Source: a virus
Lineage: Duplodnaviria; Caudoviricetes
IMG/VR virus record: IMGVR_UViG_3300048848_000063
Coordinates: 1-34,890 of that record
Length of the DNA: 34,890 nt
Direction: 5' to 3' (one strand)
Shown here: piece by piece, positions 51 through 34,890 of the stretch
Layout: the number at the start of each line of letters is the position of its first letter
Position numbering within the stretch: position 1 is the first letter of the stretch
Notes under the pieces: model-generated
Seen by the model: the letters and a program-made list of their open reading frames with translations, nothing else
The model's database searches: none
Told to the model about the DNA's origin: nothing
Position numbers and translations under genes: made by a program

Positions 51-127
51 GGCGGAGTAGCTCAGTAGGTTAGAGCAGAGGAATCATAATCCTTGTGTCG
101 GGGGTTCGAATCCCTCCTCCGCTACCA
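51..127 (+). tRNA. tRNA-Met (CAT), elongator type; prophage integration target
   Basis: Cloverleaf: acceptor GGCGGAG/CTCCGCT, D-arm TAGCTCAGTAGGTTAGAGC, anticodon stem GAGGA/TCCTT with loop ATCATAA (CAT at 85-87), T-loop GGTTCGAATCC, encoded CCA at 125-127. It lacks the C1:A72 mismatch and the GGG/CCC anticodon stem of an initiator tRNA. Confidence 0.95.
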
Positions 128-1685
128 TTAGAACAGCCGACAACTCAGGTCCGGCAACCGCAGACAGCCAGCCATTGATCTCATAGCGATAATCCTCGCC
201 GGGCTTGCGAGGATAGACGATGATGCTGGAAACGACTTCCCTGAACCTCATGGCCATTTCGGGCGTGGGCTCCGAGCCGCGCTGCTGCAATGTCTGTGCT
301 AGCGCCTCAATGTCCTCGCGGAATTTGTCGACCGCTTTCGGCCTGATTTCGATCAAATTGGAAACCGGCTCGACTGCCGCGAGCTCTGCGCGCAGCTTTT
401 CCCGCTCTGCTTTGAGCGGTTTCAGGGCGAGCGGGATATCTTCGTCGTCGATCGTGCCACGCGATATCTGATCCAGCACCCGGGCAATGCGGTCCTGCAC
501 GTCGGCAAGCGCCGCCTCCTTTGACTGGCGGCTACCGCGGCGCTCAGCAGCGATGCGCTTCGTCTCTCTGCGATATTCCTCGACATAGGCGTCGATATAG
601 CTGGTGTCCCCGAATATCTCGCGCAGCCGGTCTATGACGTTGCGCTCGATCTTTTCGACGTAGTAGCGGCCATTGTTCGAGCAGCTTCGTGACTCCTTGT
701 GCGTGCTGCAAACAACACGCGGCCCGCTGCGGTCGGCGCCGACGATGGAAAGGCCACCGCCGCACTCAGCGCATTTGAGAAGACCGGACAGCAGACGCTT
801 GTTCTTCGGTGCCGTCCTGGCGTGTTTTCCTCCCACTGCTTCTTTGCGGCGCCGTGCGGCTTCGAACAGCTCGTCCGACACGATGCGAAGGTGAGGGGCG
901 TCTATGGTCTCGACGACGCTGTCGTCGTTCACGCGGGACACGCGCCGGCCTGTCATCGGGTCTTTGACCATCTGCACGCGGTTCCAGACCAATTTCCCGA
1001 CATAGACAGGATTGCGGAGGATGCCATATCCCCGCTTGTCGTTGCCGTTGATCGTGGACGCGTTCCAGCGATCACCGCGAGGCGGCGGCACGCCTTCCAT
1101 ATTCAGCGCGCCGGCAATCAGCCTCGGCCCGATGCCGGCCACGTACATTTCGAAGATCCGCCGCACGACTGCGGCCTCTTCCTTGACAATCTCGAGAACG
1201 CCCTTCTGCCCCGCCACGGGGCGATGACCGTAGGACTTGCCGCCGGCGTTCCTGCCAGAGCGGACCACGCCGACCATACCGCGGCGGACCTTCTTCGCGC
1301 CTTCTTCCCTCTGCATCTGCCCGATGACGCCATGCATGCCGATCGACACGGTATCCATCGCGCCACCGTTCACGCAATTCATCTCGATCCCGCGAAATCG
1401 CAGGTTCTTATGAATGTGCGCCAAATCGGCAATGTCACGCGAAATGCGGTCAGGTGCTTCCGATATCAGGACGTCGAAATTTCCGCGCTCTGCGGCCTCC
1501 ATCAGGCGCGACAAGCCCGGACGCCCGAACATGGACGCTCCGGACTTGGCGCGGTCTGAAAACTCCTCGACGACTTTTGCGCCGATCCGTTCGGCATAGG
1601 CTGTGCAGAGGCGGATTTGATCCTCGACCGACTTGTCGTTCTGAAGGTCGGTGGAATATCTGCTGTAGAGGGCGGCACGCTTCAT
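84..1685 (-). CDS. Large serine recombinase (phage integrase)
   Basis: N-terminal resolvase motif YSRYSTDLQ (catalytic Ser), DRISR motif, recombinase domain (ILRNPVYVG), zinc ribbon LLSGLLKCAECGG...C...C and a coiled coil. The ATG at 1685 overlaps an upstream TGA. Confidence 0.95.
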   Translation of the reverse strand: MKRAALYSRYSTDLQNDKSVEDQIRLCTAYAERIGAKVVEEFSDRAKSGASMFGRPGLSRLMEAAERGNFDVLISEAPDRISRDIADLAHIHKNLRFRGIEMNCVNGGAMDTVSIGMHGVIGQMQREEGAKKVRRGMVGVVRSGRNAGGKSYGHRPVAGQKGVLEIVKEEAAVVRRIFEMYVAGIGPRLIAGALNMEGVPPPRGDRWNASTINGNDKRGYGILRNPVYVGKLVWNRVQMVKDPMTGRRVSRVNDDSVVETIDAPHLRIVSDELFEAARRRKEAVGGKHARTAPKNKRLLSGLLKCAECGGGLSIVGADRSGPRVVCSTHKESRSCSNNGRYYVEKIERNVIDRLREIFGDTSYIDAYVEEYRRETKRIAAERRGSRQSKEAALADVQDRIARVLDQISRGTIDDEDIPLALKPLKAEREKLRAELAAVEPVSNLIEIRPKAVDKFREDIEALAQTLQQRGSEPTPEMAMRFREVVSSIIVYPRKPGEDYRYEINGWLSAVAGPELSAVLMVAEEGFEPPTQGL

Positions 1686-1816
1686 CACTTACTCGCGGAC
1701 TGGTCAGATGGCTTTGTGTCGTTCTGATTAGCCGGGCGGGGCGGGATGGCGTCAAGGCGAGCCCTGCGCCGGGCGAGCGCCTTCACCAGCTCGATCAACG
1801 GGTTCTTGTCGTTCAT
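1685..1816 (-). CDS. 43-aa basic protein translationally coupled to the integrase (candidate directionality factor)
   Basis: Manually translated as MNDKNPLIELVKALARRRARLDAIPPRPANQNDTKPSDQSASK. ATGA overlap with the upstream gene, TGATG overlap with the integrase start, GGGAGA upstream. Confidence 0.7.
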   Translation of the reverse strand: MNDKNPLIELVKALARRRARLDAIPPRPANQNDTKPSDQSASK

Positions 1817-29806: not shown

Positions 29807-30274
29807 CTACATCGCCGCAGTTCTCGCAGCAGACCGTGCTTTCGGCGTCTTCAGAATACCGGTGATCATTGAGACCGGGGTCGACACCCTCGCTGTCTGA
29901 TACGCCTCGCTAAGTTTGCCTTCGACGACGGTAGGCGTCTCAGGCACGACGTACTCGGCATGGTCACCGGCGGCCGTCGTGCGGACGGTTGTGAAACCCT
30001 GCTGGCGCGCATACACGCCAACGATCTGCGAAGCGTTGAGGTAGAGTGGCTTGGCATCTTTCACACGAGTGAGCTCGACGAAAGTGCAGCCTGCCTTAGT
30101 GAGATGACCGATCACGTCTGTTGCGTCTTCGCTAACGACGAAACTGGCGTTTTCACCGCCTGCGGTGGTGCGGATGATGGTCTGCCCTTGGGCTTGGTAG
30201 ACTGCGACGGCGTGGTGGCCGTTTAGCAGAACGCTACCCTTACCTTCGGTGCGGCTGAGCTTCGTGAACTTCAT
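29807..30274 (-). CDS. Moron protein with two tandem FlbD/SwrD-like repeats
   Basis: Internal duplication: FTKLSR..VLLN..VAVY..TIIRTTA..FVVSE..DV versus FVELTR..LYLN..VGVY..TTVRTTA..YVVPE..VV. AGGA RBS before the ATG at 30274. Confidence 0.72.
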   Translation of the reverse strand: MKFTKLSRTEGKGSVLLNGHHAVAVYQAQGQTIIRTTAGGENASFVVSEDATDVIGHLTKAGCTFVELTRVKDAKPLYLNASQIVGVYARQQGFTTVRTTAAGDHAEYVVPETPTVVEGKLSEAYQTARVSTPVSMITGILKTPKARSAARTAAM

Positions 30275-30338
30275 ATTCAAAATCCTACTCGTTTGCGGAC
30301 AGGAAAAGTGCGTCCCTACAGGCCCGGAGAAGCCAACG

Positions 30339-30497
30339 TCAGACGGCACGGAATTCGAATTTATTCATCGCGGCTTTGAAATCTTCCTTGAGATGCCGAT
30401 CCCATGGATTGAAGAAGTAGATGTCGGCGTCCTCTTTCGAGGCATCTTCACGTGCCTCGTTTGCTGCATCATCATGATGCGGTTCTTCGTCATTCAT
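30339..30497 (-). CDS. Small acidic hypothetical protein (52 aa)
   Basis: TAAGGA RBS; MNDEEPHHDDAANEAREDASKEDADIYFFNPWDRHLKEDF... Confidence 0.5.
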   Translation of the reverse strand: MNDEEPHHDDAANEAREDASKEDADIYFFNPWDRHLKEDFKAAMNKFEFRAV

Positions 30498-31136: not shown

Positions 31137-31535
31137 TTAGGAGCTGACCGCCATACCCGCTTCGTTCAAGAGGTTCGTGAGGGCGATGATCAGCTGCGCC
31201 CCGACAAATGGCTTTTGAAGAAGCACGCTGCCGGGAACCCCATGCGCCCTCCACTGCTCGGCGCTGTCTCCGGTCATGTAGATCACAGGAAGAAGAGGCT
31301 GAAGCTCTCTGGCCCGCCGGGCCACATCCCATCCGTCGCCCTTTCCGGGCATGCGGACGTCCGTCAGTAGCGCACAGAAGCGAGAAGGGTCTTCTTCTAA
31401 GGCAGCAGTGGCTTCCTCAGCGTTCCGGGCCACCACTGCTTCGAAGTCGGCTTCAGCCAGCATGTCAATCATAGTGATGCTGATGAGGGCGTCATCTTCA
31501 GCAACAAGCACGACCTTGAATTCCGAGAACTCCAC
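31137..31535 (-). CDS. Single-domain response regulator (CheY-like receiver)
   Basis: VLVAEDD acidic pocket, phospho-acceptor LLTDVRMPG, MTG and QKPF; no output domain. GTG start at 31535 follows GAGGG. Confidence 0.9.
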   Translation of the reverse strand: MEFSEFKVVLVAEDDALISITMIDMLAEADFEAVVARNAEEATAALEEDPSRFCALLTDVRMPGKGDGWDVARRARELQPLLPVIYMTGDSAEQWRAHGVPGSVLLQKPFVGAQLIIALTNLLNEAGMAVSS

Positions 31536-31759
31536 TTGGTGACCCTCGCGTCTATCCGCTCTGCACGCCAAACCGTTACGAGGCACTAAGGTTTCGGATC
31601 AGCAGCCGCAAAATAAAAAAAGCTATTCCAAGCGGAGTTAACATAGCCAGACAGCCCTCGACATTGTCGGTTTTCGTACATAGCGAACCGACGCTCCTGT
31701 GCCTGGGCCGCCCACGGCCCCCACCCGTTCACCTGACCGCCGCCACATAGGACATCACC

Positions 31760-32407
31760 ATGAAGACGACCGTGCAGTCTCTGCAGCGGCGCTTGATCGC
31801 GCTTGGCTTTCCCCTCCCGAAGTTCGGCGCCGACGGTGATCCGGGCGCTGAAACCCTCGCGGCGATTGGCGTCGCCCTAGACGAGCTGGAGCGGGTGCGG
31901 GGGCTGAAGCCCGCCGGCCCGTCGCCGAAACCCCTGTCGGCCGCGGCCTCGACCACGTCGACCGTGATCCTGAAGCAGCCGAAGGCGACGCGCGTGATCG
32001 ACGAGATCATCGTCCATTGCACGGCAACGCCTGAAGGCCGCGACGTCTCCGTCGACACGATCCGCAGCTGGCACCTCGCCAATGGCTGGAAGGACATCGG
32101 CTACCACTACGTCGTCCTCCTCGACGGCACGGTGCAAGTGGGCCGGCCAGAAGCGGAGGTCGGCTCTCACGTTGCTGGCCACAACAGCAGGACGCTCGGC
32201 ATCGTCTATGTCGGCGGCGTCGCGGCCGACGGCAGGACGCCGAAGGACACCCGCACGCCCGCGCAGAAGGCGGCGCTGCTCGACCTCGCCAGGGCTCTCA
32301 TCGCCAAGTACCCCACCGTCCGCAAGGTCACTGGTCACAACCAGCACGCCGCCAAGGCGTGCCCCTCGTTCGACGTGCGCAAGGATGCGCTCGGCGCACT
32401 CGTCTGA
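31760..32407 (+). CDS. Endolysin: peptidoglycan-binding domain plus N-acetylmuramoyl-L-alanine amidase (T7 lysozyme-like)
   Basis: LQRRLIALG...ADGDPG PG-binding motif; IIVHCTAT, GWKDIGYHY, GH and KACPSF zinc-amidase motifs. Confidence 0.93.
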   Translation: MKTTVQSLQRRLIALGFPLPKFGADGDPGAETLAAIGVALDELERVRGLKPAGPSPKPLSAAASTTSTVILKQPKATRVIDEIIVHCTATPEGRDVSVDTIRSWHLANGWKDIGYHYVVLLDGTVQVGRPEAEVGSHVAGHNSRTLGIVYVGGVAADGRTPKDTRTPAQKAALLDLARALIAKYPTVRKVTGHNQHAAKACPSFDVRKDALGALV

Positions 32408-32437: not shown

Positions 32438-32611
32438 ATGGACAAGATCTCGAAAGCAATCGCAGCCGCCGCCGGCGGAGCCGCTACCGGTACGATCGGC
32501 TTGCCGTTCATGCCGGAGGGCACGCCCTGGTACGGCTATCTCGCCCTCTATGCCATCACGACCGGCCTGCCGGCTGTCCTGACCTACCTGGCGCCGAAGA
32601 ACGCCAGTTAG
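32438..32611 (+). CDS. Small membrane protein, holin candidate (57 aa)
   Basis: AAAGGA RBS; MDKISKAIAAAAGGAATGTIGLPFMPEGTPWYGYLALYAITTGLPAVLTYLAPKNAS; directly after the endolysin; absent from the ORF track. Confidence 0.7.
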   Translation: MDKISKAIAAAAGGAATGTIGLPFMPEGTPWYGYLALYAITTGLPAVLTYLAPKNAS

Positions 32612-32666
32612 AGCGCGCAGAAACGTTCGATCAGGCCCGTTCGTCTATCGCAGGAATGGCAGCAGC

Positions 32667-32939
32667 ATGACCCCCATCGACCGGAACGACCTGATCGAGC
32701 GCGATTTGCAATCCCACGCCAAGACCATAACCGAACTCACGATGCGCATGTCCGACTACGAGAAGGACAAGGCGGTCAGGGAGGTGAAGGATGAGCATCT
32801 CGAGGAGAGATTCGAGCGGATCGAGGATCGCGTACAGGCAATCTACAAGCTTGGCCTTTGGATCCTCGCTGCCTTTGGCGGATCCTTTATCGCGCTCGTT
32901 GCCAACTTTGTTTTCAGGGGAGGCCTCATTGCGCCATAA
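32667..32939 (+). CDS. Coiled-coil protein with C-terminal transmembrane helix (lysis cassette, holin/XhlA-like)
   Basis: Charged helical N-terminus, then LGLWILAAFGGSFIALVANFVF. Confidence 0.72.
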   Translation: MTPIDRNDLIERDLQSHAKTITELTMRMSDYEKDKAVREVKDEHLEERFERIEDRVQAIYKLGLWILAAFGGSFIALVANFVFRGGLIAP

Positions 32940-33381
32940 GCTCGCCGCCGCGGCCGTCGTCGTCATCAAGATGATGTGCGCGACGACGCTGTTCTTCGCA
33001 TTCGTCTTCACTGTCTACGCCATCGGCCCATCGCTGGAGACTCGATACTGGCCGGTCGTGTCCAAGCTGGACGTGCTGTCGATTCGCGAGACCCCAACCG
33101 GCCATACCGCGATCAAGGCCGGCTTCCGCAAGCTGCGTGACTGCGAGTACATCGGCCTCGTCTGGTTCCTCGGCAGCAGGCCGGACGACTTTCAGCGGGT
33201 GTCGGTGATCCTGCAGCGGGAGGCAGGAGACACGTCCAGCCCGAACCGGCCGATCGGCTACCAGAAGGCCGGGCCCTGGATAATCGGCATGTCGCCGGCC
33301 GATCTTAGAGGTAAGAGCTTCGCGCAGCTCGTGCACCGGTGCCATCCTTTCTGGATGACGACCACGGAGTTCTACCCCTAG
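32929..33381 (+). CDS. N-terminally anchored membrane protein of the lysis cassette
   Basis: TTG start with GGGGAGG RBS overlapping the previous gene; a hydrophobic N-terminus followed by a soluble domain with two Cys residues. Confidence 0.68.
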   Translation: MRHKLAAAAVVVIKMMCATTLFFAFVFTVYAIGPSLETRYWPVVSKLDVLSIRETPTGHTAIKAGFRKLRDCEYIGLVWFLGSRPDDFQRVSVILQREAGDTSSPNRPIGYQKAGPWIIGMSPADLRGKSFAQLVHRCHPFWMTTTEFYP

Positions 33382-33538
33382 GTGGCAATTGCGGACCAGG
33401 GAACTATCTTGTGGCACGACATCTTCGAGTATCCCATCACAGAGAAACGCGCTACTTTACCGCGATTCGCCCAGTGCAACTCGAGCCGCGGTCTTTAACT
33501 TGCCTGAAACTGATTCCATATATCTCACCTACGAGCGC

Positions 33539-33600
33539 GCGACTAAAATTCAGTTGCAACGGAACCGGCGCCGTGGAATAGACATTCGATAGGTGTCTAT
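33539..33600 (+). promoter_or_regulatory. Operator-like inverted repeats upstream of hicA
   Basis: GCGACT-AAAATTC-AGTTGC (33539-33557, overlapping a TAAAAT -10-like box) and ATAGACA-N9-TGTCTAT (33578-33600) spanning the RBS and start. Confidence 0.55.
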
Positions 33601-33850
33601 GTCACGCGCAGATCGAGTGCTTCAGGAATTTAAAGCGTGCAGGGGCCCATTCCCATATAGGGAGCTTGTCCGCCTGCTCGGAGCGTTGGGCTATGTGGAT
33701 AAGACGGGCAACGGTGGTTCAGGCCGGAAGTTTGTTCATGAAACAACGAAGCAGATAATCAAATTTCACGAGCCGCATCCCGGGAACGAAATCAAGCCGT
33801 ACTTGGTGCGCCAGATACGTGAGAAGCTGGAAGAGCAAGGTCTAATATGA
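33599..33850 (+). CDS. hicA: HicA-family toxin (mRNA interferase)
   Basis: ELVRLLGALGY...GGSGRKF...FHEPHPGNEIKPYLVRQI; small basic dsRBD-like protein; ATGA overlap with hicB. Confidence 0.9.
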   Translation: MSRADRVLQEFKACRGPFPYRELVRLLGALGYVDKTGNGGSGRKFVHETTKQIIKFHEPHPGNEIKPYLVRQIREKLEEQGLI

Positions 33851-34386
33851 AGAGAACCGTGGAATATAAGGGTTATCAAGCGTCAGTCGAATTCGCTGAT
33901 GATGCCCTGTTCCTAAAAGTGCTGCATATTGACGATCTGCTCATCGTCGAGCTGGATTCGGCTTCTAAAGCACAGAAAGCGCTTGAGGATCTCATAGAAG
34001 GCTACCTGGCGGATTGTGCGGAGGAGGGGCGGCAGCCTGATCCGCAATTCAAAGGCACGCTAAATGTGCGCCTTGGTCCTGACTTGCATAAGCGCGCGGC
34101 AATGAGGGCAGCCTCCGAAGGCCTTAGCTTCAACCGTTGGATATGTGTGGCGGTAGAAGAAAAGCTGGAGTGCGGAAAGCTGTCTGAACGCATTGACGGC
34201 GTTTTCGGGAAGTCGAGAGCTCGTATCGAGGCAGCGGCGCTTAGCAAGTGGGTCGGAGACCATCTTAACGAGTTCTCCTATGGGGTGAAGACGAATATGT
34301 CGCACCGGCATTGGAATTCGCCAAGTATGAACGAAGTGCCTGGACCAGTTGTGGCAGCCATGGTTAAAGCGAAAATGCATGCCTAA
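33847..34386 (+). CDS. hicB: HicB-family antitoxin with a C-terminal extension of about 70 aa
   Basis: EYKGYQASVEF, YLADCAEEGRQP and the RHH FKGTLNVRLGPDLHKRAA...SFN, then an extra tail after about residue 108. Confidence 0.9.
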   Translation: MKRTVEYKGYQASVEFADDALFLKVLHIDDLLIVELDSASKAQKALEDLIEGYLADCAEEGRQPDPQFKGTLNVRLGPDLHKRAAMRAASEGLSFNRWICVAVEEKLECGKLSERIDGVFGKSRARIEAAALSKWVGDHLNEFSYGVKTNMSHRHWNSPSMNEVPGPVVAAMVKAKMHA

Positions 34387-34855
34387 GAAAAAACGCAAGA
34401 CCGCCGCACCTCAAACGATTCTCGCGGGGCTTACGCTTCTTGATATTGATGTTGCGTTCGACCCGGAATTCGAAACTGCAGAGAATCCAGAACTAAATTA
34501 CAACGTAGAAATTACGCCGCCAGAACATGTAAGAGACGACTTGTTCGCCTTCACCACCGAGGTAGTGATCTCGAAGTCGGTTAAAGACGAAGACAATGCT
34601 CGTACGGCCATTCGAGTGTCCTATTTATGCGGCATGCGTGGCCGCGATATGGAAGATAACGACATCGTATCCTACGCGATGAAGTACGCTCAAACGACTG
34701 TATGGGCAAATTTTGCGATGTTGGCGACGATCATCGTGCAGCAAATGGGAGCTCAGTTCCCTATGTTCCCGCCCAATGCACTAACGGTTGTTCTTGGCGA
34801 GGCCGCGGATGATTCAGGCGATGACAACGCCACCCATACTGCTTCCAGCCAATAG
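34379..34855 (+). CDS. SecB-like chaperone (putative TAC chaperone)
   Basis: 158-aa acidic protein overlapping the hicB stop. Four alternating-hydrophobic strands, then a helix and VWANFAMLATIIVQQMGAQFPMFPP, resembling the SecB 'lfPy.R..i..l....gfppl.LP' C-terminal signature. Confidence 0.62.
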   Translation: MPKKKRKTAAPQTILAGLTLLDIDVAFDPEFETAENPELNYNVEITPPEHVRDDLFAFTTEVVISKSVKDEDNARTAIRVSYLCGMRGRDMEDNDIVSYAMKYAQTTVWANFAMLATIIVQQMGAQFPMFPPNALTVVLGEAADDSGDDNATHTASSQ

Positions 34856-34890
34856 CTCGTATAAGTTGGGAGGGGCGGCAGTGCTTTCGG

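Follow-up and report, generated by a model that had tools for sequence, protein, structure and literature searches.

The 34,890-nucleotide stretch of DNA analyzed here (hereafter, the window) is IMG/VR virus record IMGVR_UViG_3300048848_000063 (Duplodnaviria; Caudoviricetes), and its last genes are hicA, hicB, and an open reading frame that we refer to as ORF3. A preliminary description, made from the sequence alone, had read these genes as a prophage toxin-antitoxin-chaperone (TAC) system and likely anti-phage module. Its account of the layout – three overlapping genes in an AT-richer block after the lysis cassette – agrees with what we observed: successive open reading frames share 4 and 8 nucleotides, and the GC content of the operon is 51.8%, compared with 61.3% in window positions 1-33380. 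The hicA gene precedes hicB, and both products score well above the cut-offs of their families (HicA versus PF07927, 49.5 bits, cut-off 27; HicB versus PF05534, 65.2 bits, cut-off 21).

Repressor, terminase, capsid, tape-measure, and endolysin genes occupy the interior of the window. Because this single virus record combines a recombinase and a repressor with structural and lysis genes, we conclude that the operon is carried on a prophage. The best named relatives of its HicB are from Agrobacterium and Rhizobium, so the host is probably a rhizobial soil bacterium. Coordinates are collected in Table 1.

Table 1. Features of the operon and of its prophage setting, in window coordinates.
Feature	Coordinates	Strand	Basis
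hicA toxin gene, 83 amino acids, HxPH subfamily	33599-33850	+	PF07927 E 4.6e-13; phrog_8887 E 3.3e-20
hicB, 179 amino acids	33847-34386	+	4-nucleotide overlap with hicA
hicB core, residues 1-108, toxin-binding domain and ribbon-helix-helix (RHH) domain	33847-34170	+	PF05534 at residues 53-100 (E 4.9e-18); phrog_9151 at residues 1-108
HicB conserved helical linker, residues 109-120	34171-34206	+	80% mean identity, 26 tailed homologues
HicB variable tail, residues 121-179, likely chaperone-addiction (ChAD) element	34207-34386	+	Low identity; co-occurrence with chaperone gene
ORF3, SecB-like chaperone gene, 158 amino acids	34379-34855	+	8-nucleotide overlap of its start with the hicB end; predicted fold
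Palindrome TGCAACT-N6/7-AGTTGCA, likely HicB RHH operator	33538-33558		Upstream-region conservation
TTAACTT[GC] block	33495-33502	+	~40 nucleotides upstream of operator; conservation across loci
Amidase endolysin, lysis cassette upstream of operon	31760-32407	+	PF01510 E 5.8e-16
Response-regulator receiver gene, stand-alone	31137-31586	-	PF00072 E 3.4e-12
180-amino-acid gene without clear family	29807-30349	-	
Left prophage end, tRNA-Met	51-127		
Left prophage end, serine recombinase	84-1688	-	

A predicted SecB fold for the third protein

The preliminary description had given the acidic ORF3 product (24 aspartates and glutamates versus 13 lysines and arginines) a SecB-like strand and helix pattern, and had suggested comparing its structure with SecB and with Rv1957, the chaperone of the Mycobacterium tuberculosis TAC. 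A full protein scan with ORF3 identified 33 proteins at E ≤0.001. We modeled ORF3 from a 48-row alignment comprising 32 of these proteins (a 4360-amino-acid match was omitted), ORF3 itself, one close homologue, and 14 locus-derived relatives. The resulting model (predicted local distance difference test score, pLDDT, 90.3) has the strand and helix order of SecB, with four long strands and then a long helix. Foldseek placed Haemophilus influenzae (1FX3) and Escherichia coli SecB on top (1FX3 E 2.4e-6, template modeling (TM) score 0.60), and SecB structures occupied the ranks down to E 3e-4 among the matches listed. VIA-align ranked Rv1957 first (5MTW; Z 12.0, root-mean-square deviation 2.9, 123 residues aligned), followed by SecB (Z 10.5) and a Streptococcus protein of unknown function (Z 8.5), with everything else below 6. 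The Atlas's own model of ORF3 also points to SecB clusters (TM 0.60-0.67). These comparisons bear out the earlier assignment, and a SecB fold is the well-supported prediction for the third protein.

Although Rv1957 is its closest structural match, ORF3 is only 6% identical to it in that alignment. Relative to solitary export SecB (PF02556), ORF3 has the same predicted fold but 12-15% identity and no PF02556 match, and it is operonic with a toxin-antitoxin pair. Nothing significant matched ORF3 in Pfam, NCBIfam, PADLOC, or PHROGs, and a Pfam scan of 50 relatives and neighboring third genes likewise returned nothing significant (PF02556 in 0 of 50). Profile and sequence searches that used the chaperone alignment, HicA, or the HicB alignment against PDB chains gave no relevant match, tblastn with ORF3 gave none in phage and plasmid collections, and single-protein scans of viral contigs identified no relatives. 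ORF3 and its relatives are a chaperone clade absent from the Pfam, NCBIfam, PHROGs, and PADLOC models. Because all five carrier genomes examined keep their own ordinary PF02556 SecB, separately encoded and one each, we take ORF3 not to be the export chaperone.

Co-occurrence of the HicB tail and the chaperone gene

One criterion for a TAC is an antitoxin C-terminal extension that is absent from two-gene homologues, and, judged from sequence, this is the pattern in the HicB family examined here. The HicB alignment retrieved 87 loci: 7 from the viral collection and the 80 highest-ranking of 565 genome loci. Of these, 83 were evaluable; four were dropped for an open HicB or fewer than 450 nucleotides downstream. 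The chaperone profile was built from 34 protein-database rows only; because some of these rows coincide with locus proteins or closely resemble them, the profile is not fully independent of the loci. Each of its 14 matches lies directly behind a HicB of 160-204 amino acids: the chaperone family directly follows 14 of the 18 long HicBs and none of the 65 short ones. In the close clade (HicB cores with ≥45% identity to that of the window), the corresponding counts are 13 of 14 and 0 of 12. Among 14 metagenome loci, two of which were cut off, the chaperone accompanies 3/3 complete long HicBs and 0/9 short ones, two of the nine having fewer than 450 nucleotides of room downstream.

A search that started from the chaperone matched 7 of 401 Rhizobiaceae-level genomes (centre genome included). 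Four matches are credible, and all four follow a tailed antitoxin – three HicBs and one of helix-turn-helix (HTH) type. Weak profile matches at loci L106-L108 were dropped as spurious, none being in a toxin-antitoxin context. At the 15 tripartite loci, the window included, hicB and the chaperone gene overlap by 8 nucleotides in 10, overlap by 1 nucleotide in 4, and are 9 nucleotides apart in 1. Tailed and tailless HicBs interleave in a tree of 52 HicB cores; the best tree has 9 changes, and well-supported branches require at least 2.

The TAC anatomy proposed in the preliminary description, in the order toxin, antitoxin, SecB-like gene, is thus well supported by the predicted SecB fold, the co-occurrence of tail and chaperone, and the separate housekeeping SecB in 5/5 genomes. 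We consider it very likely that HicA, the tailed HicB, and the SecB-like protein form a TAC system with a chaperone-dependent antitoxin.

The same description had reported an aromatic-containing tail of about 70 amino acids. The tail that follows the end of the HicB core (~residue 108) is 71 amino acids long (34171-34383) and contains five irregularly spaced aromatics (F120, W135, F143, Y145, and W156), but it does not qualify as aromatic-rich: phenylalanine, tryptophan, and tyrosine together account for 7.9% of tails versus 7.4% of cores across 38 tailed HicBs, although tryptophan alone is higher in tails (2.2% versus 0.9%). Among tailed homologues, mean identity is 80% at residues 109-120 and 16% at residues 121-177. 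A weak model of HicB (predicted TM score 0.36) has a helix at 95-144 and pLDDT below 50 at 143-166, 168-170, and 174-179; it had no Foldseek match at E ≤0.001. Relative to the window, the HicB core averages 54% identity, the chaperone 27%, and the tail 14%; by this measure, tail and chaperone diverge faster than the core. Scanning the prophage's own proteins for a tail-like motif identified none.

HicB ends in [HND][AG] or similar in 26/27 long homologues versus 0/32 others. Because the 8-nucleotide overlap with the ATG of the third gene fixes those residues, the ending suggests that a coupled third gene lies behind nearly all long HicB homologues. We set aside a reading of this ending as a degron, since the overlapped ATG accounts for it, though a degron role is still conceivable.

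Other third genes were seen behind tailed HicBs. These encode a 148-amino-acid protein with a weak DUF6941 match (E 0.064) at L015:3274-3717, an 85-amino-acid protein of no family at L026:6464-6718, and a 139-amino-acid protein that is SecB-like by eye at L037:6482-6898. The tail at L052 resembles that at L026, and no downstream open reading frame of at least 80 amino acids was called there. A Rhizobiaceae genome carries a weak member of the chaperone profile (L105:555-1941; PF02556 E 0.044) behind a toxin-like open reading frame and a tailed HTH antitoxin, and this is probably a HigBA-type TAC. Decaying tailless copies occupy a shared chromosomal site beside ppdK at L012:5995-6237, L006, and L007; the L012 HicB stops at 80 amino acids, and no hicA match was found upstream in any of the three.

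Toxin, probable operator, and known systems

The HicAs from these loci differ from canonical HicA RNases. With the loop placed at positions 40-43 by eye from the G-S motif, a histidine at the canonical G-x-H/G-S-x loop (positions 42-43) is present in 0 of 85. In characterized HicAs (EcHicA, YpHicA3, BpsHicA, and StpHicA) the loop histidine is reported to be catalytic or essential for toxicity (PMC11594946). Instead, 85/85 sequences, which span several phyla, have both histidines (H57 and H60) of an HxPH motif, an invariance that suggests a relocated active site at H57/H60. We infer RNase activity from family membership. An alternative in-frame GTG start of hicA lies at 33593.

Upstream of hicA, the palindrome TGCAACT-N6/7-AGTTGCA is found at ≤2 mismatches in 47 of 50 upstream regions, with 9 background matches in 433,956 bases. 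It is common to tailed and tailless loci, and its sole copy in the window (33538-33558) is likely an autoregulatory operator for HicB, a candidacy that rests on conservation. The preliminary description had started its element at 33539, which falls on this palindrome, without mentioning it. An inverted repeat at 33572-33606 was set aside as an operator, since relatives conserve the palindrome instead, and a literature search identified no paper combining the TGCAACT motif and HicB. The TTAACTT[GC] block occurs once in the window and in 9/15 upstream regions of chaperone-bearing loci versus 2/16 of other alphaproteobacterial ones. It is a possible promoter element or regulator half-site, reminiscent of RpoH-type heat-shock promoters or of CtrA half-sites. 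A promoter and terminator scan gave signal at chance level, and no RNA data set was listed as containing the operon.

The operon is a real TAC-type member of an already known class, and its architecture is not new. The preliminary description had called HicAB-SecB linkage noted bioinformatically, which understates the record: Bordes et al. 2016 validated HicA-HicB-SecB(TA) of Methylomonas methanica MC09 as a true TAC, in which HicAB needs the chaperone and the tail is transferable (PMC5105189). The Methylomonas system shares with the window its toxin/antitoxin/chaperone order, its HicAB pair, and an RHH domain followed by a C-terminal extension; it differs in being gammaproteobacterial and in having a 41-amino-acid tail that, by eye, is unlike the 71-amino-acid tail here, and the chaperone of the window lacks a match to the Pfam SecB model. 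The accessible text on the Methylomonas system describes no assay against phages. Sala et al. 2013 had defined the HicB class of TACs by pfam05534 plus pfam07927, and their table of 60 TAC systems, in its accessible form, lists no alphaproteobacterium (PMC3581621).

The sensing model comes from HigBAC of E. coli NT1F31, in which lambda gpV competes for the chaperone (bioRxiv 10.1101/2024.02.24.581848). Like the operon described here, HigBAC is a prophage-borne TAC with an RNase-family toxin, a tailed antitoxin, and a SecB-like chaperone. It differs in its HigB/HigA pair, in its location behind cI rather than behind lysis genes, and in its tail of 96 amino acids, which has four aromatics and three potential motifs ~30 amino acids apart, versus five irregular aromatics here. 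In CmdTAC, another TAC that acts against phages, the chaperone senses a structural protein of the phage (PMC11618068). The CmdTAC toxin is an ADP-ribosyltransferase, and the C terminus of the antitoxin is an Ala-Ala ClpXP degron; in the HicBs studied here, the start codon of the overlapping gene accounts for the [HND][AG] ends. In their accessible portions, the HigBAC and CmdTAC papers mention neither HicA nor HicB (bioRxiv 10.1101/2024.02.24.581848; PMC11618068). The M. tuberculosis system (HigBA1-Rv1957) has a HigBA pair and is described as stress-responsive. We rejected a validated HicA domain in DefensePredictor as a TAC precedent, the protein being a 472-amino-acid fusion and not a TAC, and the papers found under the name 'HicABC' are, judged by title, unrelated or, in one case, a table artefact.

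Our literature search, which covered sources other than subscription papers and preprint supplements, identified no anti-phage HicAB TAC and agrees with the earlier statement that no alphaproteobacterial prophage example has been characterized. A 2024 review of HicAB calls its anti-phage action unproven (PMC11594946), and the accessible text of a survey of 14 HicA contexts (Gerdes 2024) does not mention SecB or chaperones (PMC10865869). What appears to be unreported is the alphaproteobacterial clade, the conserved operator, an HxPH HicA without the canonical histidine, and a similar trio that lambdoid coliphages carry at the rexAB position, described below.

A possible role in anti-phage defence and competing explanations

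Work on the M. tuberculosis, Methylomonas, HigBAC, and CmdTAC systems suggests how the operon might function. The tail would render HicB unstable or aggregation-prone, and a chaperone tetramer would bind the tail during HicB synthesis, with the 8-nucleotide overlap coupling production of the two proteins. Stabilized HicB would hold HicA and, at the palindrome, repress the operon. Competition for the chaperone from a late protein of an infecting phage would then lead to loss of HicB, and freed HicA would stop the infection by cutting RNA. If the antitoxin is indeed chaperone-dependent, an anti-phage role seems fairly probable; we consider the full model, a TAC that protects the lysogen against other phages, slightly more likely than not. 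For this role and for the sensing of a phage protein by the chaperone, both proposed in the preliminary description, the argument is by analogy with HigBAC and CmdTAC, and the support from genomes is indirect.

The prophage location of the operon behind lysis genes and several features of related loci are in line with a defence role. Tripartite loci account for 7/7 viral-collection relatives versus 7/17 in the genome-collection clade (p 0.019; rows non-independent), the viral-collection scan patterns matching 7/10 tailless HicBs. Three related loci lie next to lysis genes, as in the window (L001 and L081, with an endolysin by Pfam, and L087, lysis-like by eye), and three others have integrase neighbors (L082, L084, and L088). 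In coliphage mEp234 (EF120460; L109:1773-2951) the slot behind cI contains an HxPH-type hicA, a tailed 152-amino-acid hicB, and a 141-amino-acid unannotated gene, with a 1-nucleotide overlap and the same operator as the window. This slot holds RexAB and HigBAC in lambdoid phages (bioRxiv 10.1101/2024.02.24.581848). The mEp234 trio is kept in 8/8 IMG/VR relatives (L110-L117), in 7/8 visibly behind a repressor-like open reading frame (by eye); the HK106 and mEp506 records match HicB, and 6 of the 5426 E. coli genomes carry the mEp234-type third gene. That the mEp234 third protein resembles SecB is no more than a lead (Atlas rank 4, score 0.92; PF02556 makes up 23% of the cluster), and the protein has no detectable similarity to ORF3 (hhalign probability 1.3%). 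A literature search identified no paper linking HK106 and hicA.

Other observations weigh against the proposed system or its role in defence. Related loci are not independent, so p-values overstate the case. Among non-viral loci, with 80 of 149 called open reading frames scanned, a phage or integrase neighbor accompanies 2/9 tripartite and 0/11 tailless loci (p 0.19), and 5/9 tripartite loci lie among housekeeping genes. PADLOC identified no convincing defence neighbors among 27 neighboring proteins and gave no match for hicA, hicB, or ORF3. No defence was detected for HicAB2 of the Pseudomonas putida P1 prophage, which also did not stabilize the prophage (PMC12894663), or for the Adephagia gp90/91 HicAB (PMC11594946). 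Across 13 loci, tail divergence is not correlated with that of the chaperone (rho -0.01), this chaperone family is missing behind 4 of the 18 long HicBs, tails show no aromatic enrichment, and the canonical toxin histidine is missing.

Some of these points would suit a true TAC without a specific anti-phage trigger, one that responds to protein-folding stress in the host or maintains the prophage by addiction. Misfolded host proteins would divert the chaperone, or loss of the prophage would dilute it, and HicA would slow growth. The housekeeping surroundings of non-viral tripartite loci fit such a role, as do the stress-induced description of the M. tuberculosis TAC, the finding that TAC chaperones, including that of Methylomonas, can replace export SecB and so bind host clients (PMC5105189), and the stabilization of a plasmid by a Paracoccus prophage HicAB (PMC11594946). 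We nevertheless regard it as somewhat unlikely, given that all seven viral-collection relatives are tripartite, that tail and chaperone appear to diverge fast, that the lambdoid trio occupies a known defence slot, and that P. putida HicAB2 did not stabilize its own prophage (PMC12894663).

A self-sufficient HicAB, with a tail that serves for oligomerization (through the conserved helix at 109-120) or as a degron and a SecB-like gene that encodes a linked but separate holdase, would explain why residues 109-120 are conserved and predicted to be helical instead of disordered, why aromatics are not enriched, and why four long HicBs lack this chaperone family. It is very unlikely in view of the absence of the chaperone from all 65 short HicBs, the position of every credible chaperone behind a tailed antitoxin, and the start-stop overlap in 14/15 tripartite loci (window included); moreover, at least 3 of the 4 chaperone-less long HicBs have another candidate third gene. 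The effector step could also be unlike that of textbook HicA if the HxPH-subfamily protein is inactive or not an RNase, as the loop histidine missing from 85/85 sequences and the lack of a sequence match to solved HicA might indicate. This strikes us as highly improbable: the PF07927 match is full and above the curated cut-off, H57 and H60 are invariant across several phyla, toxins of the published HicB-TAC class share PF07927 (PMC3581621), and the Methylomonas pair, whether or not its HicA has the HxPH motif, is toxic (PMC5105189).

Returning to the defence model, if it is true it would add HicA to the toxin families of chaperone-sensing immune systems. The operon, whose known architecture makes it only moderately surprising, is a ready test of HicA use in chaperone-sensed phage defence and extends TACs to Alphaproteobacteria via a chaperone clade missed by curated libraries. 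Closely related tailed and tailless HicBs constitute natural pairs for the gain and loss of chaperone dependence, and the mEp234/HK106-type trio makes the question of chaperone dependence testable in E. coli. A broader idea, which we put forward tentatively and consider unlikely, is that one HicA subfamily, with a two-histidine (HxPH) active site in a new position and a shared operator, repeatedly gained fast-evolving antitoxin tails, each with a matching sensor (alphaproteobacterial SecB-like, barely related lambdoid, or non-SecB partners). On this view, HicAB would serve phage defence as an interchangeable warhead, and addiction to chaperones would reach beyond SecB.

At L082:1395-3134, L084:1465-3688, and L087:1343-2856, the space separating the TAC from the integrase or prophage end contains unrelated orphan genes, which suggests that related phages have variable cargo slots there; one such orphan is an NYN-domain gene with a PADLOC HEC-09 match (E 7.6e-9). 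A public contig is identical to window positions 32500-34890, with zero differences; it is possibly the same DNA and hence may not be independent. At the left end of the window, the serine recombinase is encoded on the strand opposite to tRNA-Met, and its open reading frame extends over the 3' portion of that tRNA gene. No repeat of at least 12 nucleotides from the tRNA region, a possible attachment (att) core, occurs elsewhere in the window; the right att site is probably beyond it, and no prophage-chromosome junctions were seen. Between the endolysin and the operon are three short genes whose products appear, by eye, to be membrane-bound. The response-regulator receiver gene and the 180-amino-acid gene of Table 1 are antisense and lie between the tail genes and the endolysin, and may represent further cargo.

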